Under the pieces are notes generated by a model. That model was not told the origin of the DNA. It saw nothing but the letters and a program-made list of their open reading frames with translations, and did no database searches. Made by a program: the position numbers and the translations under genes. Below are positions 13,871 through 63,759 of a stretch of 64,000 nt of DNA, in pieces; position 1 is the first letter of the stretch; each line of letters starts with the position of its first letter. The stretch is from Pristiophorus japonicus (lineage: Eukaryota), in the NCBI RefSeq assembly GCF_044704955.1, contig NC_091991.1, positions 30,132,001 through 30,196,000 of the forward strand. The letters run 5' to 3'.

Positions 13871-15064
13871 ATCAATCAGGGATCAAACTGATTTGTTAAC
13901 TGCATTGAGCTAGTTTTGATTTATTTTGCAAATACCTGAATTTGGCCCCAAAAACCCAGTTACATATCCTCAACTAAGAATAGCCTTCTCACAGTTCATT
14001 GCACTGCTCCAAGATCTGGGTATTGTAATGAGGTACTTCGATAATTGAGAGACTATATTTTTTTAACATGGTAAAGTGTCTGTTTTTTTTGTGTGTGGAA
14101 GAGAAATTTTAGAAAAATTTTAGAATTCCTTTAGCTCTATAATGCAATAGTTCCGCCAATTTTTGCTAACCTAAAGATTATATTTTAATATGTTACTCAC
14201 TTATTTAAATTACATCAAAGCCTGCAAAATTGAAAATGGAACCAGGGGCACAACAATGAACAGTTTCTATACTACACAGTTTCAAAGGTATTGTTAGCCG
14301 TACAGTTACTGACAAAAGGCCTTCGGGTCAAACTTTCCACTTGAAAGATCAGAAGCAAGTGACTGCGTTACCCTTGTTACAGTGAATAAGTCTATGCTCA
14401 CTCTACGATGTTACTTCTTATCCTTCACCAGTCAACCACTGCAAAATGGTCTACATGGCAACATCGAGTTCCAAGGTGCCTATCCCTTTTTCCAAAATTG
14501 GTGGCAAATATGTGGAAAGAAATAACACATCCCTGCAGGCAGGTGGCACCATTCATTTTCCACCATCCTGGTGATCAAAATTGTCATCAGTTTCAAGGAC
14601 AGTTGTCTTTTCTTGTTCTGATTGGGAGTGGGCAAGATCAGATGTTAAATACGTGTACATAATAAAATATGATTTGTATCCCTGATGGGCTAATAAAGTG
14701 AACCCCAGCAGTTTAGTCAGGGGTTTGCACTTCCTAATTGGCGTTATTTGAATACATTTATTTTGAATCTGTTACTGGCAACATTAAAATGACGTTGATT
14801 TGAAAATCCAAGCCAGGGTTGTTACGTCTTGAATAAAGAATTTGTGAGCTCAACGTAATGTTTGACCATAGTCCTTTATTGCAGGTCTCCAGAGTGCCTC
14901 TCCAGCCTGTGAGGCCTCCTTATGTACAGGTGCTCCTAAGGGATTGTGGGATCCCTTGGGACTTGAGGAGATGAGCCCTTTGGTTAAAAAAGGTATTTAC
15001 AGGTTTACATATATAACACTCCCCCACCCCCCAAAGTCAATAGTGTAACTATTTACAATGTGAG

Positions 15065-18000
15065 TCAATCTGGGGCCTTCCTTTCCCTGGTTGATCGTCT
15101 CAGTGCAAATGCTGGTTTTGGTGAGTCGTTTGTTGGGCCCTCGCTGGGCTGCTGCGCAGCTGGCCTTGCAGGACTGCTGGGGGTGGTGAGTCCTGCTGGG
15201 CTGCTGCGGGTAATGGGTTTTGCTTCGTGGTCAACCGTTGGGTCGGTTGCCACTTGTGTGTGTGTTGGGGGGGGTCAAAAAAGGTAAAGTCTATTGTGGG
15301 TTGTTCTGGATAGTCCGTGAATCTGAGTTTGGGTTTGGTCCAAGTGTTTTCTGTAGTTGAATCCATTTGAAAGTTTGACCAGAAACACCCTACTCCCCTC
15401 TTTGGCCACGACAGTGCCAGGAAGCTACTTGGGGCCTTGTCCATAATTCAACACAAATACAGGATCATTAATCTCGATTTCGCGTGACACATTTGTGCGA
15501 TCATGATATGTATTCTGTTGAAGCCGCCTGCTCTCTACCTGATCCTGTAGATCAGGGTGGACTAACGAGAGCCTTGTCTTAAGTGCCCTCCTCATGAGCA
15601 GTTCAGCTGGGGAAACCCCAGTGAGCGAGTGCAGTCTTGTGCGGTAACTAAGCAGGACTCGGGATAGGCGAGTCTGCAGTGAGCCTTCAGTTACTCTCGT
15701 CAAGCCCTGCTTGATTGTTTGCACTGCTCGCTCTGCCTGACGATTGGACACTGGTTTAAACGGGGCACGTGTGACATGTTTGATCCCATTGCAGGCCATG
15801 AACTCTTTGAACTCGGCACTGGTGAAGCACGGCCCATTGCCACTCACAAGGACGTCAGGCAAGCCGTGCATGGCAAACATGGCCCGCAGGCTTTCAATGG
15901 TGGCAGCAGACATGCTTGCCGACATTACCTCACATTCAATCCATTTGGAGTACGCATCTACAACCACAAGGAACATTTTTTCCAAGAATGGGCCTGCATA
16001 GTCGACATGGACCCTGGACCATGGTTTGGAGGGCCAGGACCATAAACTTAGTGGCGCCTCCCTGGGTGCATTGCTTAACTGTGAACATGTGTTACATTTG
16101 TGCACACAGGACTCTAAGTCTACATCGATACCGGGACACCACGCGTGGGATCTGGCTATCGCTTTCATCATTACAATGCCTGGGTCAGTACTGTGGAGGT
16201 CACTAATGAAAGTGTCTCTGCCCTTTTTTAACACCACTACCCGATTACTCCATAGGAGGCAGTCTGCCTGTATGGACATTTCATCTCTGCGCTGCTGGTA
16301 CGGCTTTATTTCTTCCTGCATCTCTAACAAGACACTAGACCAACTCCCATGGAGCACACAGTTTTTTACTAAGGACAGTAAGGGGTCCTGGCTCGTCCAG
16401 GTTCTAATCTGTCGGGCAGTAACAGGTGATTGCTCACTCTCGAATGCTTCCATTACCATAACTAAATCTGCAGGCTGTGCCGTCTTTGCCCCTGTGGTGG
16501 ACAATGGCAACCTACTGAGAGCATCGGCACAGTTTTCTGTGCCTGACCTATGGCGGATGGTGTAGTTGTATGTGGACAATGTGAGCACCCATCCCTGGAT
16601 GCGGACCGATGCATTCGTATTTATCCCCTTACTTTCAGAAAAGAGATATATCAGTGGCTTTTGGTCAGTTTCCAATTCAAATTTGAGCCCAAACAAATAT
16701 TGATGCATTTTCTTTACCCCATTAACACACGCTAATGCTTCTTTTTCGATCATGCTGTAGGCCCTCTCAGCCTTAGACAGACTTCTGGATGCATAAGCAA
16801 CCGGTTGCAATTTCCCAGATTCATTGGCTTGTTGCAATACACACCCGACACCGTATGACGACGCATCACATGCTTGTACCAAACGCTTACATGGATCATA
16901 CAACACAAGCAATTTGTTTGAGCATAACAGTTTCCTAGCTTTCGCAAAGGCATTTTCTTGGCTTTTACCCCATACCCATTCATCTCCTTATGCAGTAAAG
17001 TGTACAGTGGTTCTAACAGTGTGCTAAGACCCGGTAAGAAGTTACCAAAGTAGTTCAGGAGTCCTAGAAACGAGCACAGCTCCGTCACGTTCTGTGATCT
17101 CGGTGCATTCTTGATTGCCTCCATCTTCGAATCAGTGGGCCTGATGCCGTCCGCCACGATTCTTCTCCCCAGGAACTCCACTTCAGGCACCAGGAAAATG
17201 CACTTCGAGCATTTTAACCTGAGCCCCACATGATTAAGCCGATTAAGAACCTCCTCCAGGTTCTGCAGATGCTCGACGGTGTCCCGACCTGTAACCAAGA
17301 TGTCGTCCTGGAAGACCACGGAGCGCGGGACTGACTTCAGCAAGCTTTCCATGTTCCTCTGGAATATTGTCGCGGCTGATCGAATCCCAAACGGGCATCT
17401 GTTGTAAATGAAGAGACCTTTGTGCGTGTTGATGCAGGTGAGGTCCTTCGATGATTCCTCCAGCTCCTGCGTCATGTAGGCCGAGGTCAAGTCCAGCTTC
17501 GTGAACGTTTTTCTTCCCGCCAGCGTCGCAAATAGGTCATCTGCCTTTGGTTGCAGGTATTGATCCTGCAGGGAGAAACGATTGATAATTACTTTGTAAT
17601 CACCACAGATTCTGACAGTACTGTCTTCCTTGAGGACTGGAACAATCGGACTGGCCCACTCGTTGAATTCAATCGGTGAAATGATGCCCTCTTGTTGCAG
17701 CCGGTCCAGCTCGATCTCCACCCTCTCTCTCATCATGTACAGTACCGCTCTCGCCTTGTGATGGATGTGTCGCACCCCCGGAATCAAGTGGATCTGCACT
17801 TTTGCTCCTTGGAGCTTCCCGATACCCGGTTCGAACAGCGAGGGGAACTTGAAATGTCGTCGACGGACGAGAGTGCTCGGACGTTGTCCCAGTTCCAGCA
17901 TATCTTCCCCAGCCAGCTCCTGCTGAACAGCATGGGGCCATTGCCCGGTACCACTCAGAATGGTAAATTGTGCACCGTTCCATCGTAGGAGACCTTTATG

Positions 18001-18180
18001 GTAACACTGCCAATTAAGGGAATCAGTTCCTTTGTATACGTTCTCAGTTTAGTACGAATGGGAGTCAGGACTGGCCTTGAGGCCTTGCTGCACCACAATT
18101 TATCGAAAGTCGTTTTGCTCATTATGGACTGGCTCGCACCCGTGCCCAGCTCCATTGACACGGTGAGTCCATTTAATTAA
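15065..18180 (-). pseudogene. pol: Gypsy pol (protease, RT, RNase H, integrase) with frameshifts
   Basis: MELGTGAS (DTGA-like), WASPIVPV, RICGDYK, KLDLTSAY, FQDDILV, CDASSYGVG, EKEALAC, RVHVDYAGPF, QAERAV. Confidence 0.92.
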
Positions 18181-19143
18181 ACCTTCAGCTTTATCGGGGG
18201 GACACTTTGTGGTAAATGCGTGCACCCCATATACCTCAGCTCCCTCAGTCTGAGGCTCTGGTTCATCGTGATCTACCATGGATCTGTCCTCCTCTGCAAC
18301 ATGGTGGTTTGCAGGATTAGCAGGGTTTGCAGCTCGCCTGCACATACGTTGGAGGTGTCCCATTGTTCCACAGCCCTTGCAGATGTATCCTTTGAAGCGG
18401 CATGAATAGAAACGATGATCACCTCCGCAGCGACAACAAGGTGTTAATGGCCTTGCATTCAGCACCCTTGATGGTGGACTCTGAGACATCTGCGAATGTG
18501 CAGCTGCAGGCATGTGAGTCCTGCCCTGTACATTACAATTCGAGAACAACCTTACTTTGTTCACAGTACTTGCAGCAGCACTCGTATGCTGAGAAATTTG
18601 TTTGGTATTGTCACTGATAGTGATGAATGCCTGGGCTATCACTATGGCTTTACTCAAGGTTGGGGTCTTTACAGTCAAAAGTTTGTGAAGTATTACTTCA
18701 TGGCCAATGCCAAGTACAAAGAAATCCCTGAGCATGTGCTCCAAGTGTCTTTCAAAGTTGCAATGTCCTGCAAGGCGCCTTAGTTCAGCGAAGTAGCTCG
18801 CCACTTCCTGGTCTTCAGACCTCTTGTATGTGCAGAACCAGTAGCTCGCCATCAGAACGCTTTCCTTCGGGTTTAGATGCTCCCGGACCAGTGTGCACAA
18901 ATCATCGTACGACTTCTCTGTGGGTTTCGCTGGAGCGAGCAGATTTTTCATGAGGCCATACGTTGGTGCCCCACAGACGGTGAGAAGGATCGCCCTTCTT
19001 TTGGCAGCGTTCGTTTCTCCTTCCAGCTCGTTGGCCACGAAGTATTGGTTGAGTCACTCCACGAAGGTTTCCCAATCATCTCCCTCCCAAAATTTCTCCA
19101 GGATGCCCACAGTTTTCTGCATTGTTGCGGTGGGGTTAGTCAT
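18180..19143 (-). pseudogene. gag: Gypsy gag (premature stop)
   Basis: DDWETFVE*LNQYFVANEL...; zinc knuckles CCRCGGDH and CKGCGTMGHLQRMC. Confidence 0.88.
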
Positions 19144-19605
19144 CTGTACCTCATCGGCAGTTGTTACGACTTGCATAAAGAATTTGACCAGATACTGTAA
19201 GCTCAAAGTAATGTGTGACCGTAGTCCTTTATTGCAGGTCTCCAGAGTGCCTCTCGAGCCTGTGAGGCCTCCTTATATACAGGTGCTCCCAAGGGATTGT
19301 GGGATCCCTTGGGACTCAAGGGGATGAGCCCTCTGGTGGTTAAACAAGGTATTTACAGGTTTAAATATATAACACAGGTGTCCAATCATTGTTCATTAAC
19401 TAATGGGAGTGCCACATATACTTGTGGATAAGATGACCCTGCTCCTACTTTCCAGCTAAAACTAAAAAATATCTGTGAACTACCTACAAGAACCCCACCT
19501 TGGTTCACTATAGATCCATAGAACGTGGGGAAATTTACATTTTAATGCTGGCTCGTATGTCTGCACATCAACGGCAAACCAGGGGCCTGAAAGAGGGGAG
19601 CAAGA

Positions 19606-22749: not shown

Positions 22750-24754
22750 GTCAATTGAGGTATGGCTACAACAGCGAAGAGGTCCACTTTGTGGCAGGAG
22801 GAGAGGTCAGAGTGACCACAGCCATTGTGCACACCACATGCTCGCCAGGGGCTCCGCAACTGAATGGGAACAGCAGCTGGGGGGGAGGCCAAGACATCGT
22901 CGGAGGGAGGAAGGCCCGATCGTCGCTGGTGAAGTACAGGCCTGCCACCATCTCAGCAAAACCCCAGCCCTGCACGAGGTCAAAAAGGTCATCCGTCAGC
23001 TCAAGAATACAAGGCATCAGGAACAGATGGAATCCCCACTGAGGCACTAAAGTATGGTGGAGAAGCACTATTGGCACGAATGCATGACCTCATCTCTCTT
23101 ATCTGGAAGGAGGAAAGCATGCCGGGAGATCTCAGAGATGCCATAATCGTGACCATCTTTAAAAAAGGGGAAAAGTCCGACTGCGGCAACTACAGAAGAA
23201 TTTCCCTGCTGTTGGCCACTGGGAATGTCATCGCTAGAATCCTCCTCAACCGTCTTCTTCCTGTGGCTGAAGAGCTCCTCCCAGAGTCACAATGTGGATT
23301 CTGTCCACTGAGGGGTACAACGGACATGATCTTCGCCGCGCGACAACTACAAAAGAAATGCAGGGAACAGCACCAACCCTTGTACATGGCCTTCTTTGAC
23401 CTCACAAAGGCCTTTGACACTGTTAACCACGAGGGACTATGGAGCGTCCTCCTCCGTTTTGGCTGTCCCCAAAAGTTTCTCACCATCCTCCGCCTGCTCC
23501 ACGAATACATGCAAGCCGTAATCCTGACCGACGGATCTACCACACACCCAATCCACGTCCGGACCAGGGTCAAGCAGGGCAGCGTCATCTCGCTAATGCG
23601 CTTCTCGATCTTCACTGCAATGCTCCATCTCACACTCAACAAGCTCCCCACTGGACTGGAACTAAACTATAGAACCAATGGGAACCTGTTCAACCTTCGT
23701 CGCCTCCAGGCTAGATCCAAGTTCATCCCATCTTCTGTCATCGAACTACAGTACGCGGATGACGCTTGCGTCTGCGCACATTTAGAGGCTGAACTCCAAG
23801 CCATCGTCAACACCTTCACCGAGATGTACGAAAGCATGGGCCTTACACTAAACATCCGTAAGACAAAGGTCCTCCACTAACCTGACACTGCCACACAGCA
23901 CTGCCCCCCCCAGTCATCAAAATCCATGGCACGGCCTTGGACAACATGGACCATTTTACATGCTTCAGGAGTCTACTGTCAGCAAGGGCAGACATCGACG
24001 ACGAGGTCCAACACTGCCTCCAGTGTGCCAGCACAGCTTTCGGTCACCTGAGGAAGAGAGTGTTTGAAGACCAGGATCTCAAATCTGACACCAAGCATAT
24101 GGTCTACAGGGCTGTAGTGATACCCACCCTCCTGTATGGCTTAGAGATGTGGATCATGTACAGTAGACACCTCAAAACACTGGAGAAATACCACCAGCGC
24201 TGCCTCCGCAAGATTCTGCAAATCCCCTGGGAGGACAGACGCACCAACGTCAGTGTTCTCGATCAGGCCAAAATTCCCAGCATCGAAGCACTGACCACAC
24301 TCGACCAGCTCCGTTGGGCGGGCCACATCGTCTGCATGCCTAACACGAGACTCCCAAAGCAAGCACACTACTCGGAACTCCTACATGGCAAGCGAGCCCC
24401 AGGTGGGCAGAGGAAACATTTCAAGGACACCCTCAAAGCCTCCTTGATAAAGTGTAACATCCCCACTGGCACTTGGGAATCCCTGGCCAAAGACCGCCCT
24501 AACTGGAGGAAGAGCATCCGGGAGAGCACTGAGCACCTCAAGTCTCGTCGCCGAGACAATGGAGAAAACAAGCGCAGACAGCAGAAGTAGCGTGTGGCAA
24601 ACCAGACTCCCCACCCACCCTTTCCTTTAACCACTGTCTGTCCCACCTGTGACAGAAACTGTAATTCCTGTATTGGACTGTACAGTCACCTGAAAACTCA
24701 CTGTTAGAGTGGAAGCAAATCTTCCTTGACTTCGAGGGACTACCTATGATGATG
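22750..24754 (+). mobile_element. RTE-clade LINE, 5'-truncated, with RT domain
   Basis: CGNYRRISLL, LPESQCGF, FFDLTKAFD, VKQG, LQYADD, QLRWAGH, C-terminal CPTC..H; (GAT)n tail. Confidence 0.92.
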
Positions 24755-51504: not shown

Positions 51505-52885
51505 CTCTCCTTGACATTCAATGGTATTACCATCATCAGATCCATCACCATCAACAGCCTGGAAACTTTACTGGACCCGCCACATAAATACGAGAGCAAT
51601 CAGAGGCTGGGTATTTTGCCACGTGTGACTCACCTCCTGACTCTCCATAGCCTTTCCAACATCTACAAGGGACAAGTCAGGAGTGTGATGGAATATTCTC
51701 CACTCGGTTACCTGAGGAAGAGAGTGTTCGAAGACCAGGACCTCAAATCTGGCACCAAGCTTATGGTTTATAGGGCTGTAGCGATACCCGCCCTCCTGTA
51801 TGGCTCAGAGACGTGGACCATATACAGTAGACACCTCAAAGCGCTGGAGAAGTACCACCAGCGATGCCTCCACAAGATCCTGCAAATCCCCTGGGAGGAT
51901 AGACACACCAACATCAGTGTTCTCGATCAGGCCAACACCCGCAGCATCGAAGCACTGACCACACTCGACCAGCTCCGATGGGCCACATCGTCCGCATGCC
52001 CGACACGAGACACCCAAAACAAGCACTCTATTCGGAACTCCTATATGGCAAGCGATCCTCAGGTGGGCAGAGGAAATGTTTCAAGGACACCCTCAAAGCC
52101 TCATTGATAAAGTGCAACATCCCCACCGGCACCTGGGAATCCCTGCCCCAAGACCGCCCTAAGTGGAGGAAGAGCATCTGGGAGGGCGCTGGGCACCTCG
52201 TGTCTCATCGCCGAGAGCATGCAGAAAACAAGCACAGGCAGCGGAAAGTATGTGTGGCAAACCAGACTCCCCACCCACCCTTTCCTTCAACGACTGTCTG
52301 TCCCACCCACCTGTGACAGAGACTGTAATTCCCGTATTGAGAACTCACTTTTAGAGTGGAAGCAAATCTTCCTCGATTTTGAGGGACTGCCTATGATGAT
52401 GACTCTCCACTTGTCTGGCTGAGTGGAGCTCAAACAACACTCACGAAGCTTGACACCATCCAGGACAAAGAAGCCCGCTTGATTGGCACCCCAATCACCA
52501 CCTTAAACATTCACTCCTTCCATCACAGGCGCACCGTGTCTGCAGTGTGCACCATCTACAAGATGCACTGCAGTAACTAATCAAGTCTTCTTCAACAGCA
52601 CCTCCCAAACCCATGACTTCTACCACATAGAAGGACAAGGGCAGCAGCCGCATGGGAACACCATCACCTCCAAGTTCCCTCGAAGTTACACATCATCCTG
52701 ACTTGGAAACATATGGTCAAAATCCTGGAGCTCCCTCCCTAACAGCACTGTGGTAGTGCTTTCACCACATGGACGGCAGCGGTTCAAGAAGGCAGCTCAC
52801 CACCACTTTCTCAAGGGCAATTAGGGATGGGCAGTAAATGCTGGCCTTGCCAGCGATGCCCACACCCATGAATGAATTTTTTTTA
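51505..52885 (+). mobile_element. Second CR1/Jockey-group LINE 3' fragment, split by an RTE
   Basis: IYKGQVRSVMEYSPL continues after 52401 (LDTIQDK.ARLIG, HSFHHRRTVSAVC). Confidence 0.82.
51705..52401 (+). mobile_element. RTE 3' fragment
   Basis: LLYGSETW, YHQRCL, QLRW; (GAT)n tail; TSD A(T/C)TCTCCACT. Confidence 0.9.
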
Positions 52886-53802: not shown

Positions 53803-54387
53803 GGGTGCCGAATTTCATCACCTCACTGCTCACTGCTGCCGACATAGCTTTTGCAGATCCGCCCAGTGCCACTTTGGAGGTGGCCTGGAGCAGGCGGGAG
53901 GGGAGAACCGCTGGGAATGGCTCGCCACCATCCCGCCCGCCCAGTTCCCGTAATGATGCGGGCAGGAGTCAACAGCAGAACGGGGGTGGACCGCTGCGAG
54001 GAGGCTGGTCTGTCCCCGACGGTAAGTATGAAGAACCTGAAAAAAAGGTTAGTGAACATTTTATATATTTTTTTCCACAGCGACTTACCTGCATGGGGTC
54101 CCCTGAAGGTCTTCCGATAGTTTTTTTATTTTTTACTGATGATTTTTTTTTTCAGGTCTTTGACCCTCCGTGGGCCGAACTCCATCCTCGGCGGCAAGTG
54201 CCTCTGCCACTGAGAATGAGACCACCCGCCCGCTGCCACCCAGATTGGCGACGTACGTCGTCCATTTGCTGCCCGCTGACCTTCGAGGGCCCTCGGCGAT
54301 GAATATCCTGCCCAAAGTACTTTCCAGTACCTCGGCGGCCATTGGCGGCACTTTGGGTGGGCGGAGGCCTGGATCAAAATCAGCCCC
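53803..54387. mobile_element. GC-rich non-autonomous DNA transposon (Harbinger-like termini)
   Basis: Imperfect inverted ends GGGTGCCGAATTTCATC / GATCAAAATCAGCCCC; no coding capacity recognised. Confidence 0.5.
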
Positions 54388-54398
54388 TTGATAGAGAC

Positions 54399-56505
54399 TA
54401 TCATGTATGTAACCACAATGTAACACCACTGTATTACTGTATGCACTCAACCTAGATGCACACCTTGACCACAAGGGGTAAAGTTGTGGGAGATACTCCT
54501 TACCTGATCACACAGGTATAAAAAGGGAGGTCCCACGCAGGGTCATCGTCTTTGGAGTCCTGTGAATAAAATGTTAAGGTCACAGAGTGACCTTGTCCCC
54601 AGAATGTGCCTCGTGTGGTTTCACGCTGTAGAGTAAGGACTTTACATTAGCGACGAGGATGGGATCTATAGGCCAGCAGGAGACGTGATAGGCGGCATTG
54701 TAGGGAGGGTCTTTGAATCCTGAGCCTACCTTGCTTGATGATTTGGACCGCACGTTCCGCCTGGCCATTGGAGGCCGGCTTGAACGACGCAGTCCTGACG
54801 TGGTTGATGCCATTGCCCGACATAAACGCTCGGAATTCGTAGCTTGTGAAACATGGGCCATTATCACTAACCAGGATGCCCGGCAAGCCACGGGGTGCAA
54901 AAATCCATGTAGGCTTTCCACGGTGGTGGATGACGTGCATGAATTCTGAATGATGCATTCGATCCATTTCGAGTACGTATCTACCACAATAAGGAATATC
55001 TTACCCATGAACGGGCCCGCATAGTCAACATGAATGCGTGACCATGGCCTGGTGGGCCAGGGCCACGGGCTGAACGGGGCCTCCCTGGGGGCATTACCCA
55101 GCTGGGCACACGTCGTGCACCTGCGAACACAGTGTTCCAGGTCTGAATCAATTCCAGACCACCAAATGTGTGACCAGGCAATGGCCTTCATCAGCACAGT
55201 GCCTGGGTGCTCGCGTGGAGTTCCCTGATGAATGCCTCCCTGCCCTTCTGGGGCATAACTACACGGCTGCCCCATAGTAGGCAGTCGGCTTGGATGGAGA
55301 GCTCATCCATCCATCTGTGGAACGGTCTGACCTCCTCAGGACAGGCTCCGTGTGCGGGCGCCCAATCCCCAGTCAGGACACATTTCTTAATCAGGGATAG
55401 GAGGGGATCTCTGTTTGTCCAGATTTTGATCTGGCGGGCTGTGATGGGGGAGCCTGTGCTGTCAAAGGCATCGACAGCCATGACCATCTCAGCGCTTTGC
55501 TCCGCTGCCCCCTCAGTGGTGGCCAGTGGAAGCCTGCTGAGTGCGTCAGCGCAATTTTCAGTGCCGGGCCGGTGCTGGATGGAGTGGTCATAAGCAGCCA
55601 GCGTGAGAGCCCATCGTTGTATGCGAGCTGATGCATTGGCATTGATAGCCTTGCTGTCTGACAACAAGGATGTTAATGGCTTGTGGTCCGTCTCTAATTC
55701 AAACTTCCTACCAAATAGGTACTGATGCATTTTTTTTACACCATAGACACATATAAGCGCTTCCTTCTCGACCATCTCATATCCCCGTTCTGCTTGAGAG
55801 AGGTTGTAGTTGACCTCAGCATTGCCCTGCTGCAACACGCACCCAACCCCATAGGATGATGCATCACATGTCAGAACCAATTTTTTACAGGGGTCGTACA
55901 GGGTCAACAACTTGTTTGAACAAAGTAGGTTTCGCGCCCGATCAAAAGCCCGTTCCTGACAGTCCCCCCAAAGCAAATCACAACCCTTATGCAGGAGCAA
56001 GTGTAGCGGCTCCAACAACGTGTTCACGTTCGGCAGAAAGTTCCCAAAATAGTTGACCAGTCCCAGGAATGATGGGTGCTAGTAAGTCCTTCATGAGCGG
56101 GTAAGTCTTTGGTCCGCAGCTGGTCAAAAGATGAGCCCTTCGCTTGTCGGCCGCTGCATTCCCCAGCCATTCTTTCGTAACGAAGCTTTGCTGAAGCCTC
56201 TCGACAAAATCATCCCAGTCCTCCCCAACACAGTACCGTTCCTCTATGCTACTGGTGGGCATTCTCGGGGCCGTTAATTCCCGTTTCTCGTCGCCAATGT
56301 AAAGTCCTTACTCTACAGCATGAAACCACATGAGGCACATTCTGGGGACAAGGTCACTCTGTGATCTTAACTCTTTATTCACAGGACTCCAAAGACGATG
56401 ACCCTGCGTGGGACCTCCCTTTTTATACCTGTGTGATCAGGTGTGCATCTAGGTTGAGTGTATACAGTATTACAGTGGTGTTACATTGTGGTTACATACA
56501 TGACA
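54399..56505 (-). mobile_element. Internally deleted Gypsy element with inverted LTRs
   Basis: LTR 54399-54646 (+) and LTR 56298-56505 (-), each followed inward by a PBS; gag start, RNase H and partial integrase on the minus strand; TSD GAGAC on both sides. Confidence 0.9.
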
Positions 56506-56721
56506 GAGACCACAGCAGTGGATTTACGTCAGATGCAGTTTCTTTCTTTGGCTCTTCAACTTCGAAGGGTTGGCCACCCCTGGTCCGGCTCCTCTCCTTT
56601 GGGACTACCGCTGAAGTTCTCTTTTTCCTGTGTGTGTACCATTCCTGTACTGTCATCTACCACTTCAAGAACAACATGTGACCTATTTTTAAACTCATAA
56701 AGTAGAAGTGTAATCATAATT

Positions 56722-57440
56722 ACCATCATAGGCAGTCCCTCGGAATTAAGGCAGACTTGCTTCCACTCTTAGCATGAGTTCTTAGGTGGCTGTACAGTCG
56801 AATACGAGAACCACAGTCTCTGTCACAGGTGGGACAGACAGTGGTTGAAGGAAAGTGTGGGCAGGAAGTCTGGTTTGCCGCACGCTCCTTCCGCTGCCTG
56901 CGCTTGATTTCTGCATGCTCTCGGCGACGAGACTCGAAGAGCTCAGCGCCCTCCCGGATGCATTTCTTCCACTTAGGGCCAGGTGTCAGTGGGGATGTCG
57001 CATTTTATCAGGGAGGCTTTGAGGGTGTCCTTGTAACGTTTACGCTGCCCGTCTTTGGCTCGTTTGCCGTGGATGAGTTCCGAGTAGAGCTATTGCTTTG
57101 GGAGTCTCGTGTCTAGCATGCGAACTATGTGGTCTGCCCAGCGGAGCTGATCAAGTGTGGTCAGTGCTTCAATGCTGGGGATGTTGGCCTGGACGAGGAC
57201 GCTAATGTTGGTGCGTCTGTCCTCCCAGGGAATTTGCAGGATCTTGTGGAGACATCGTTGGTAGTATTTCTCCAGCGACTTGAGGTGTCTACTGTACATG
57301 GTCCACTTCCCTGAGCCATACAGGAGGGCGGGTATCACTATGGTCCTGTAGAACATGAGCTGGTGACAGTTTTGAGGGCCTGGTCTTCAAACACTCTTTT
57401 CCTCAGGCGGCCGAAGGCTGTACTGGCACACTGGAGGCGG
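56722..57440 (-). mobile_element. RTE 3' fragment
   Basis: ORF 57090-57356 (LLYGSGKW..YYQRCL..QLRWADH). Confidence 0.88.
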
Positions 57441-58485: not shown

Positions 58486-59758
58486 ATGCAACGTGGCTCA
58501 AGGACCAAGAAATTCTTAGAGGATGAAGTAGAGGCACTGGTTACTGTAATTGAGGATAGATGGCACGAGCTGGACACCAGCAGAAGTCACATAAAAGTTT
58601 CATCAAAAGAAATGAAGAAACGCTGAACCAACTTGCAGAAGATTACTGTGCAATGGTGACCACCCCGAGGTCTGGAGGCCAGTGCAAAAAGAAATGGCAG
58701 AATCTTGGTCAAGTAGTTAGTGTAAGTAATATTTTCATTTATTCAATGGAATTGCAATTGTAAATGTGACCAGCTGTATATGTCCCACCCAACAGAAAGA
58801 CACCCTCTCTAAAAAGTTATATTTTTTATCTTTGCAGAGGAAGGTGGCACACAACAAACAGGAAATAACTTAAACAGGAGGAGGCCCGGCAAATCTGCAG
58901 CCACTGACACCCTTGGAAGACAGGGTCGCCGCTTTGATGGGTCCTGCCTGGAGAAAAGCAACCACCACTGCACAAGCTGGGCCCACACTCGAGGGAGAGG
59001 GTAAGTCCTGCAAATTCCACAGTCTGGCTTTCCTAAATATTAAGTACTGCGCGGACTAGCTATGCTTCGGTTCCTGGGGATGTCTCCGTCAGCTACGCTT
59101 CGGTTGATGCAATGTGCTATCATTCATCGTGATCCTTCAAATGAGCCTGGTGCCTGCACTGTGTGAGCCCACTCATTCCACCCACCCTGCCCCCTTCTCT
59201 GCTGCTCACCATTTGCCTGTTCTGTTATATTTTGCAGAACTTGAGGCCAACCCTGACAATGCAGAAGAAGATTCAGACGCGGACGAGCTTGAAGAGGAGA
59301 ACATCTTCCAGTCCCACCTCCAGACCAAGAGCATGGGGGTGAGGGGGAGGGGGAGTGGGAGGGGATGGATGAAGCCCCCACTGTTATATTCATTTTGGAG
59401 GAGGTGCAGGTGCCGCCCATTGAATGGTGCCAACCCCTTTCCTGAGTGGTACATGTTGCTGAGACATTCCATGGTTTCCCACAGTCCCAGGCTGGGGATT
59501 CCAGTGGGGTGCAGCAAGGCACACCCAGGGCCCCACCGTCTGAAGCTGTGAGTCCCAGTGGGATGCAGTGAGACACACCCAGGGTGAGGAGGGGAAGGAG
59601 AGCTTGACAGTGCTCTCCTGAGGTGCAGGATCTAACAGATGTGGTTCAGATGATGGCAATGAGTGTGGAGAGCATTGACCTTATGTGATCACTCTTGGAC
59701 ACCATCAGTGGGGTGGGTGATGAGGTATCAGGACTGTCAGGAGAAGTTACAACACTCT
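58486..59758 (+). pseudogene. Harbinger Myb/SANT-like DNA-binding protein, spliced (exons 58486-58721, 58838-59000, 59238 to about 59758)
   Basis: FLEDEVEALV..RSGGQCKKKWQNL, TGGGPA motif, acidic tract; GTAAGT donors and TTTGCAG acceptors; frameshift and stop. Confidence 0.82.
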
Positions 59759-60934
59759 TACAAAGCGTTCACTGATGAACTGCTGGCGCAAGGCTTGAAC
59801 AATCGTTAAAGGGTCATGACGGCCCGCCCTCCTCCACTGTCGTGCTCCCAATTCAGGTAGTTGCATGACTTCCTTGCCCTCATCCTCCTCCTCCTCCTCC
59901 TCATCTGCATCTTCCTCCTCATCATCAGCCACTCTCACCTCAGGTGGGTCTTCTACTACCAGCTGCTGTTGCCTCATGATGGTTAAGTTATGCAGCATGC
60001 AGCACACAACAGTGAACTGACCGACAACCTCAGGAGAGTATTGCAAGTAGCCTCCGGAATGGTTCAGGCAATGGTCCTCTCTATTATGCTTCGTGTTGCA
60101 ATGTGCAACATGTTGTATTCCCGGTCAGCTTCCGTTCGGGTTACGCGAAGGGGCATCATGAGCTTGGTGGCGAGGCCGTACCCTTTGTCTCCCAGTAGCC
60201 AGCTCTGCCCTTCTGACTGCTGCTGAAACATGGCAGATATAACGCTTTTGCGTAGGATGAACGCTTCATGGGTACTCCCGGGGTATCTTGCATCAACTGA
60301 CATGATGCGATACATGTCATCACACACAAGTTGCACATTAATGGAGTGGAAGCCTTTTCTGTTCTTGTACATCTCGGAATCCTCCAATGGTGTTCGCAAG
60401 GCAATGTGGGTACAATCAATGCAGCCCTGTACCTTTGGGAAGCCAGCAATCCTGGAGAATTCCACAGCCCTGTCATGCATTGCCTGGGTAGTCATGGAGA
60501 AACTTTATGTAATCATTCCTCTGGGCATATAGTGCAGCAGTCACCTGCCGAATGCAGACATATGTTTCATGTTGAGAAATGGCGCGCACATTCCCAGTTA
60601 TGGCCTGGAATGATCCAAATGCATAGACTGAAAGTGCAGCTGTAACCTTCACCAACTGATAAAGCAATCCTCCTGATGCTTCTAGGTTGCAGGTCTGCTT
60701 TTACTAACTCAGTTACAACTTCTTTGTTGAAACGCAGCCTTCTCACAGTCTGCATCACTCAGGTGCGGGTATGAATGCCCGTCTCAATATATCCAACATG
60801 GGTAAAGGCCTCCTGCCCATCATACTATGTGCTCTAAGGTTCCTCATGCGATGACATCAAATCAATTGTCTCCTCCACAGCACCATCTTGCAGAAGGCTT
60901 GCATGAGATATGGCATTGTCAGTATTGCCCCCAT
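59747..60934 (-). pseudogene. Harbinger (HARBI1-like, DDE_Tnp_4) transposase, disrupted
   Basis: FPKVQGCIDCTHI, NRKGFHSINVQLVCD, PGSTH, WLLGDKGY, RSIIERTI, CCMLHN. Confidence 0.92.
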
Positions 60935-62964: not shown

Positions 62965-63759
62965 CATCGTCATCATCATCATAACAGGTCCTCGAAATCG
63001 AGGAAGAATTGCTTCCACTCTAAAAGTGAGTTCTCAGGTGACTGTACAGTCCAATATGGGAATTAGAGTCTCTGTCACAGGTGGGACAGACAGTGGTTGA
63101 AGGAAAAGGTGGGCGGGGAGTCTGGTTTGCCGCACACTCCTTCCGCTGCCTGCGTTTGTTTTCTGCATGCTCTCGGCAAAGAGACTCGAGGTGGTCAGTG
63201 CCCTGCCGGATGCTCTTCCTCCTCTTAGGGCAGTCTTTGGCCAGGGACTCCCAGGTGTCGGTGGGGATGTTGCACTTTATCAAGGAGTCTTTGAAGGTGT
63301 CTTTGAAATGTTTCCTCTGCCCACCTGGGGCTCGCTTGCCGTGTAGGAGTTCTGAGTAGAGCGCTTGGCTTTGGGAGTCTTGTGTCGGGCATGTGGATGA
63401 TGTGGCCCGCCCAGCAGAGCTGGTCGAGTGTGGCCAGTGCTTCGATGCTGGGGATGTTGGACTGAGCGAGAACACTGACGTTGGTGCGTCTATCCTCCCA
63501 GTGGATTTGCAGGATCTTGCGGAGACATCGTTGGTGGTATTTCTCCAGCGATTTGAGGTGTTCTTCTGTATATGGTCCACGTCTCTGAGCCATACAGGAG
63601 GGCAGGTATCACACAGCCCTGTAGACCATAAGCTTGGTGCCAATGAAGTACTTGGTGACGAGGTCCAACACCGCCTCCAGTGTGCAAGCGCAGCTTTCGG
63701 TCGCCTGAGGAAGAGAGTGTTCAAAGATCAGGCCCTCAAATCTGGCATCAAGCTCATGG
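62965..63759 (-). mobile_element. RTE 3' fragment with an inverted 5' segment (63657-63759, +)
   Basis: C-terminal CPTCDRD..HLRTH; the upstream DEVQHRLQCASAAFGRLRKRVF segment lies on the opposite strand. Confidence 0.9.

Follow-up and report, generated by a model that had tools for sequence, protein, structure and literature searches.

An inverted-LTR Ty3/Gypsy insertion with a target-site duplication and a probable tRNA-Ser copy at its inner junction in Pristiophorus japonicus

How can an LTR retrotransposon come to present a U3 end to the host chromosome on both of its sides? At positions 54394 to 56510 of the window (the whole 64,000-nucleotide stretch of Pristiophorus japonicus DNA analysed here), two LTRs lie in inverted orientation, U3 ends outward, around a fragment that runs from gag to integrase, and not as the direct repeats of a canonical LTR element. 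The structure was confirmed as real. We propose, with a probability of about 0.6, that it is the dead, one-off product of a reverse transcription error in a particle of an abundant Mag-like Ty3/Gypsy family, that its parts were joined before integration and that the integrase of the family inserted it.

Layout of the element and its host junctions

The features are given below in the order of the plus strand; P0001 is a relative of 1356 amino acids that aligns to the interior over residues 13-66 and 686-1166.

54394-54398, no strand: left copy of the target-site duplication (TSD), GAGAC, 5 bp, abutting the left LTR
54399-54646, plus strand: left LTR (U3-R-U5), 248 bp, starting with TA instead of TG and ending with CA; TATA box at 54517, AATAAA at 54565; has 40 bp (54462-54501) that are missing from the right LTR
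54648-54665, plus strand: left primer-binding site (PBS), or tRNA copy, matching the complement of the tRNA-Ser(GCU) 3' end at 17 of 18 nt, with nt 19 mismatched
54661-54665, no strand: microhomology GGGAT, 5 nt common to the tRNA tail (nt 14-18) and the integrase antisense strand
54661-55230, minus strand: integrase, truncated at its 3' end, the Zn finger and the greater part of the core being retained; reading frame broken near 55209-55214 and 54895-54946; residues 982-1166 of the 1356 of P0001
55231-56073, minus strand: RNase H preceded by the last part of RT; a short deletion near 55802-55813 keeps the frame; residues 686-981 of P0001
56074-56262, minus strand: 5' end of gag, fused to the last part of RT at about 56073/56074; residues 13-66 of P0001, then 686 onward
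56287-56296, minus strand: genomic PBS, a 10-nt match to tRNA-Ser(GCU), with the family leader after it
56298-56505, minus strand: right LTR (U3-R-U5), 208 bp, TG...CA; TATA box at 56427, AATAAA at 56379; has lost 40 bp at 56442/56443, between short direct repeats
56506-56510, no strand: right copy of the TSD, GAGAC, crossed by contigs 56483-56748 (run X2) and 56482-56760 (run X4)

A TATA box and an AATAAA signal in each arm, together with a PBS at each inner U5 end, identify both outer ends as U3. The first-pass annotation, made from the letters of the sequence, had placed a left LTR with a PBS on the plus strand and a right LTR with a PBS and gag on the minus strand; every one of its coordinates was reproduced, and the absence of a PPT and a 3' LTR and the end of the integrase at LLLAYRS were likewise confirmed. 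The TATA box and the poly(A) signal are intact in each arm, and the U3 and U5 termini are imperfect inverted repeats of each other. When LTR and PBS are aligned, the two arms differ by 9 substitutions over 219 aligned nt (4.1%) and by one 40-bp indel, for which the left LTR shows the family state, as the 40 bp are present in family contigs (run X2 has 126 loose ends at 56442). APOBEC-type hypermutation of the left arm was considered and is ruled out, since the nine differences run in both directions.

About 620 codons (the remainder of gag, the protease and most of RT) are missing from the interior at the gag-RT fusion, and about 190 C-terminal amino acids of the integrase are absent along with the PPT and the 3' LTR. 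No PPT was found in the interior, where the sole sense-strand purine run of at least 10 nt lies within RNase H, at 55769. Pfam searches of the minus strand (four frames scanned) returned RNase H (E = 1.6e-25), the integrase Zn finger (2.1e-7) and a partial rve domain (1.4e-5, below the curated cut-off). RT-RNase H precedes integrase in pol, and the right arm reads as a TG...CA LTR followed by a tRNA PBS and then gag, both as in Ty3/Gypsy elements. Mosquito Mag elements are described as having mostly 5-bp TSDs and a Ser or Leu PBS, and, as far as the same source goes, the Mag lineage of Ty3/Gypsy (Metaviridae) shares with our element the order Gag-RT-RNaseH-INT, LTRs of about 200-250 bp, a tRNA-Ser PBS and a 5-bp TSD (PMC3286476). 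The PBS, the TSD and the short LTRs suggest a Mag-like assignment, made from such features in a copy from which most of RT is absent; relatives of about 1300 amino acids, 41-50% identical, are found among the "K02A2.6-like" polyproteins of fish and invertebrates. Unlike Mag, the element has inverted LTRs, two PBSs and neither a PPT nor a 3' LTR, and most of gag-RT and the C terminus of the integrase are gone.

GAGAC is repeated in direct orientation at the two outer ends, where the flanks match at exactly 5 bp and fail to match at 3, 4, 6, 7 and 8 bp; the chance that two random 5-mers from the window agree is 0.0012. The perfect duplication reported in the first pass thus holds, at exactly 5 bp, and a short direct TSD at both ends is the mark of an insertion made by an integrase. 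Beyond the TSD, the host sequence on one side does not recur in inverted form on the other.

Public contigs from four runs, representing at most three samples, were aligned to 54600-56760, a stretch that begins within the left LTR, without the left flank and most of that LTR. Contigs of single-copy depth in both runs of sample S1 cross the junction of right LTR, TSD and flank, with just 23-24 nt on the LTR side, under the 31-nt bridging criterion, and these runs may derive from the same sample as the assembly. Among the 32 listed of about 121,000 pieces, none bridges the left junction and none spans the whole stretch, a gap in contig cover proving nothing about presence or absence; no contig of an empty site is among those listed for 54600-56760. 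At 56526 the contigs of both S1 runs have a different letter, which may reflect an allele or an assembly error. The left junction forms a small hairpin (54389-54401, GATAG-AGA-CTATC) that takes in the TG-to-TA change at the start of the LTR, and this change may have been templated by the flank.

Two unlike primer-binding sites

The two PBSs had been taken as equivalent, a view that does not survive comparison with the tRNA: the left one is 18 nt long, not 11, and corresponds to a reverse-transcribed copy of the primer tRNA. The genomic PBS on the right ends after 10 nt. Family contigs read through it and into the leader (X4 record 15, X5 record 22), and 65 X2 contigs end only at 56268; since contigs pass through the right PBS, a length of 10 nt appears, among the contigs listed, to be the norm of the family. 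The chance that the 8 nt past a genomic PBS would equal the tRNA is 1.5e-5, and it is 0.016 for the 3 nt that are not supplied by integrase.

The tRNA reference is the conserved 3' end of tRNA-Ser(GCU) from other genomes, that of the host being assumed identical, and no tRNA gene lies within the 64-kb window. When loci bearing the motif were retrieved (125 in all), tRNA-Ser(gct) was found in 29 of the 34 that were scanned, and one 27-nt context is common to 116 of the 125. The minus strand of the left junction is identical over 16 nt to a human tRNA fragment published in PMC11855652. A literature search with the PBS motif gave unrelated matches only, among the matches listed. The window also contains a full-length Gypsy relative (14818-19375, minus strand) whose DNA is 67% identical over RNase H-integrase. 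It has direct LTRs, a PPT, frame breaks, a degenerate tRNA-Ser PBS that matches the tRNA at 9 of its first 11 nt, and possibly a degenerate 5-bp TSD.

The mismatched nt 19 of the left PBS would face position 58 of the tRNA. Plus-strand strong-stop synthesis is reported to end at m1A58 of the primer tRNA (PMC12657518), and the tRNA copy of the left arm ends where such a stop predicts (nt 18 matches and nt 19 does not), the stop site being that of the literature and not of the host's own tRNA. In this arm U3-R-U5 thus leads into a tRNA copy that exceeds the genomic PBS in length (17/18 versus 10 nt), as in strong-stop DNA, and because the tail copies the tRNA up to the A58 stop, the left arm is best read as plus-strand strong-stop DNA. 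A rare lineage of the family with an inherited long PBS is possible and would weaken this reading.

At the inner end of the tail, the microhomology proposed earlier is indeed present, and only its size needs correction, to the 5 nt GGGAT. Two integrase contigs of X5, among the loose ends listed, depart from the alignment just before 54661, so that 54661-54665 belongs to the integrase and to the tRNA tail alike. The extent of the overlap was settled by these family contigs and not by the tally of residues after YR in 120 distant homologues.

The family itself is very large, with 74,160 contigs in X2 and a summed depth of 10^5-10^6 against 15-20 on the single-copy flank, depth not being equal to copy number. 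One contig joint in X2 (depth 41; one among the 12 listed of 24 joints) connects 55780 with 56287 and has a single extra letter. The PBS thereby grows to 11 nt, and next to it comes an RNase H site where the window's copy agrees with tRNA nt 12-18 at 6/7; the chance of a match of at least 7/8 there is 3.8e-4. This suggests that a tRNA tail misprimed in direct orientation at another locus, in other words that mispriming has recurred in the family. A 695-nt contig of X6 (record 31) matches the right LTR and the 10-nt PBS only, with 22 other letters, before running about 540 nt outside the element; it is a candidate for a divergent subfamily or a non-autonomous derivative.

A proposed route and its rivals

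The layout and the tRNA match with its end point are read directly from the DNA, and from them we infer the following order of events. The family PBS pairs with tRNA-Ser(GCU) over 10 nt, and the left arm, as its sequence shows, is U3-R-U5 plus an 18-nt tRNA copy that stops before A58. As in Ty1 and Ty3, the strong-stop tail would then be unable to extend at its normal place, because its last 8 nt mismatch the genomic PBS, and would be displaced as a dead end. Its 3' end could have paired, over the 5 nt of overlap seen at the junction, with the integrase site on a plus-sense template, presumably a second genomic RNA or stalled plus-strand DNA, along which RT would have worked its way back over pol and gag to the genomic PBS and U5-R. 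The second U3 would have come from a later strong-stop DNA of the ordinary kind, and filling in of both strands would have given the linear duplex U3-R-U5-PBS10-gag..int-[PBS18-U5-R-U3 inverted], already joined before integration. Integrase would finally have taken both U3 ends in one concerted insertion, to which the 5-bp duplication directly attests, and a decay of about 2% per arm would have followed. The earlier proposal that two U3 ends were integrated together is supported by the exact 5-bp duplication and by the similar age of the arms and the interior. Five nucleotides are a short anchor for RT priming, and the 40-bp LTR indel and the gag-RT deletion fall outside the model and need separate slips or later deletions.

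Dead-end strong-stop DNA of this kind has a counterpart in yeast. In the Lauermann and Boeke model of Ty1 and Ty3, as presented in PMC5371799, the genomic PBS is short and the first strong-stop DNA, whose copy of the tRNA reaches past it, is displaced; what is inherited is the genomic PBS and not the tRNA copy, and the inherited PBS corresponds to the right arm of our element. The same source describes the build-up of dead-end, tRNA-tailed strong-stop DNA in Ty3 particles. The yeast dead-end product has 12 nt of tRNA and accumulates in particles (PMC5371799), whereas an 18-nt version would here be fixed in a chromosome as one arm. Ty1 integrase is reported to have relaxed end specificity and to make 5-bp duplications when it inserts composite DNAs that arose by erroneous priming (PMC2939329).

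Another likeness is the aberrant second-strand transfer of HIV-1, in which a tRNA-tailed plus strong-stop DNA that mismatches the minus strand is reported, from defective proviruses, to go to an internal site, the tRNA copy marking the junction (PMC12657518). According to that report the HIV-1 tail runs past A58 (7-54 nt beyond the 18-nt PBS) and lands on the minus strand, which yields a deletion in direct orientation; the tail studied here, in contrast, goes no further than A58, owes its mismatch to a genomic PBS of just 10 nt, and would land on a plus-sense template, which yields an inversion and two U3 ends. Inverted segments are reported in 1-2% of proviruses in HIV-1 (PMC9278108) and HTLV-1c (PMC13427564), and inversion circles formed by autointegration in Arabidopsis particles (PMC7197481). 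As described in these sources, they lie inside proviruses or circles, whereas our element has U3 at both host junctions. Autointegration is ruled out here, since it couples an LTR terminus to the interior, whereas the inner junction lies where the tRNA copy stops.

DIRS elements, like ours, have inverted terminal repeats around gag/RT sequence, and to our knowledge they have neither a tRNA PBS nor a TSD. The present element, in contrast, has PBSs, a 5-bp TSD and the remnant of a DDE integrase: the four frames scanned gave rve and Integrase_H2C2 only, and no tyrosine recombinase, the enzyme that DIRS elements are described as having in place of a DDE integrase (PMC3950715). The event proposed is thus a known type of error, aberrant strong-stop transfer, in a geometry (a two-U3 inverted element with a TSD) for which no literature precedent was found, older retroviral literature and most subscription literature, the older included, lying outside the search.

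Sequence alone cannot separate joining coupled to reverse transcription from later end-joining by the host. For the latter, the main rival although we regard it as rather unlikely, and a refinement of the two-molecule model of the first pass, two cDNAs (one ending in an unextended, tRNA-tailed strong-stop flap, the other broken in integrase) would have given their U3 ends to one integration complex, and the host would then have sealed the free inner ends at the 5-nt microhomology. This scheme accounts equally well for the TSD, for the 18-nt tail and for the 5-nt overlap; microhomology at proviral breakpoints is reported to arise from RT switching or MMEJ (PMC13427564), and if the templates came from two members of the family, some of the differences between the LTRs, the 40-bp indel among them, could be explained. 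However, two defective cDNAs would have to meet in one complex, repair would have to spare the 18-nt tail to its last base, and the direct-orientation joint 55780/56287 points to mispriming by the tail at the time of reverse transcription.

In a family this abundant, nested or adjacent insertions and microhomology deletions are to be expected, and the 40-bp indel does distinguish the arms. One could imagine that two elements inserted independently, in opposite orientation, and that a deletion then took out all that lay between the PBS of the one element and the integrase of its neighbour, but this is very improbable: GAGAC would have to match by chance (0.0012), and the left element would in addition need a tRNA-type PBS of 18 nt against the family norm of 10 nt.

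We find it hardly credible that one plus strand folded back on its own PBS region, or that a replication template switch after a normal insertion inverted the 5' LTR. The element's own leader does have GGGA soon after the PBS, 4 nt that overlap with the junction, and the imperfect inverted repeats at the U3 and U5 ends could have served for a switch back. A fold-back copy, however, would carry the genomic leader letters (AAAC...) between PBS and GGGA, whereas the junction reads the tRNA letters GAT, and on this ground the aberrant fold-back cDNA put forward in the first pass lacks support; the 18-nt tRNA match already goes most of the way to refuting it. Moreover, the private changes of the right arm are at 56470, 56365 and 56331 and include the 40-bp loss, and the left arm, whose own are at 54400 and 54649, keeps the family state at all four, so that the left arm is at least no late copy of the right one.

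That the element belongs to a mobile, non-autonomous inverted-LTR subfamily copied as a unit, as had also been suggested, has very little to recommend it beyond its intact TATA boxes and poly(A) signals. A PPT and a sense 3' R are missing from both strands; strand transfer could therefore not take place, U3 would not be regenerated and the copy could not be reverse-transcribed again, which makes such a subfamily unlikely. The full set of cis signals that allows mobilisation in trans of elements of the TRIM or LARD type (direct LTRs with PBS and PPT) is lacking as well. Contigs without the family letter at 54891, 54895, 54902 and 54947, the private positions near the junction, amount to 0-2.8 single-copy equivalents in X4 and 2.4-26.5 in X2, depth not being copy number, and no strand-changing joint is among the 15 listed of 46 joints. 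We probably face a single dead copy.

An artefact of assembly or long-read fold-back would suit a highly repetitive family whose left junction and whole stretch are unspanned among the contigs listed, but it has next to no probability, as it would create neither a TSD nor a tail that matches a tRNA, the arms are set apart by nine substitutions and the 40-bp indel, each arm keeping some of the family alleles, neither host flank is an inverted copy of the other and the right junction is found in short-read contigs.

Age, surroundings and meaning

Counted over the 40 variant rows listed, the interior shows near-fixed differences from the family at 34 or more of 1621 sites (at least 2.1%). With the 4.1% divergence between the arms, this fits one old insertion that has undergone neutral decay since. 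A read-through transcript from the right LTR is predicted from the letters to be able to pair with the far end at 112 of its first 120 nt. Convergent transcripts from the two LTRs would be fully complementary, so that a source of dsRNA or piRNA is possible on geometrical grounds.

The window is dense in LINE, SINE and LTR repeats. Inverted LINE 3' fragments, 79-86% alike, lie on both sides of the element (51704-52401 and 56724-57438). Their origin with the element in one inverted duplication is ruled out, as further copies lie at 24016-24754 and 62966-63642 and the sequence between is unrelated; these further copies identify the bracketing pair as independent insertions. A GC-rich element (53803-54388), whose terminal inverted repeats are short and imperfect, ends 5 bp before the left TSD, and just before it is a ATTCTATG tail that we take to be CR1-like. 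On the other side, the single-copy flank at 56511-56690 (minus strand) has an AG splice-acceptor-like site near 56686 and then an open stretch, possibly a host exon beside the insertion. Broken frames at 59747-60758 (minus strand) resemble a Harbinger-type DDE transposase.

As a single dead copy in a very large family, the insertion has little biological effect and is no new kind of mobile element. Its interest is as a germline fossil of steps that are as a rule known only from particles or from the proviruses of patients. It indicates that an animal Gypsy element with a 10-nt PBS may copy its primer tRNA up to A58, that dead-end strong-stop DNA can apparently be rescued by mispairing over 5 nt, and that the integrase would accept a pair of U3 ends and still make an exact TSD. 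The junction at nt 18 of the tRNA tail, with its microhomology, gives a signature that can be searched for in genomes, where standard LTR finders look for direct repeats and thus miss inverted copies. We tentatively raise the idea, doubtful as it is at present, that LTR elements with a short PBS regularly throw off two-U3 inverted insertions, which have been overlooked, and that the tRNA-tailed strong-stop DNA of these elements would reprime at any match of 5-8 nt, either in direct orientation, giving a deletion, or in inverted orientation, giving two U3 ends. If this were true, large families would leave many independent two-U3 copies, each recording the position at which its tRNA copy stopped, and the facing promoters could make each copy a source of dsRNA against its own family.
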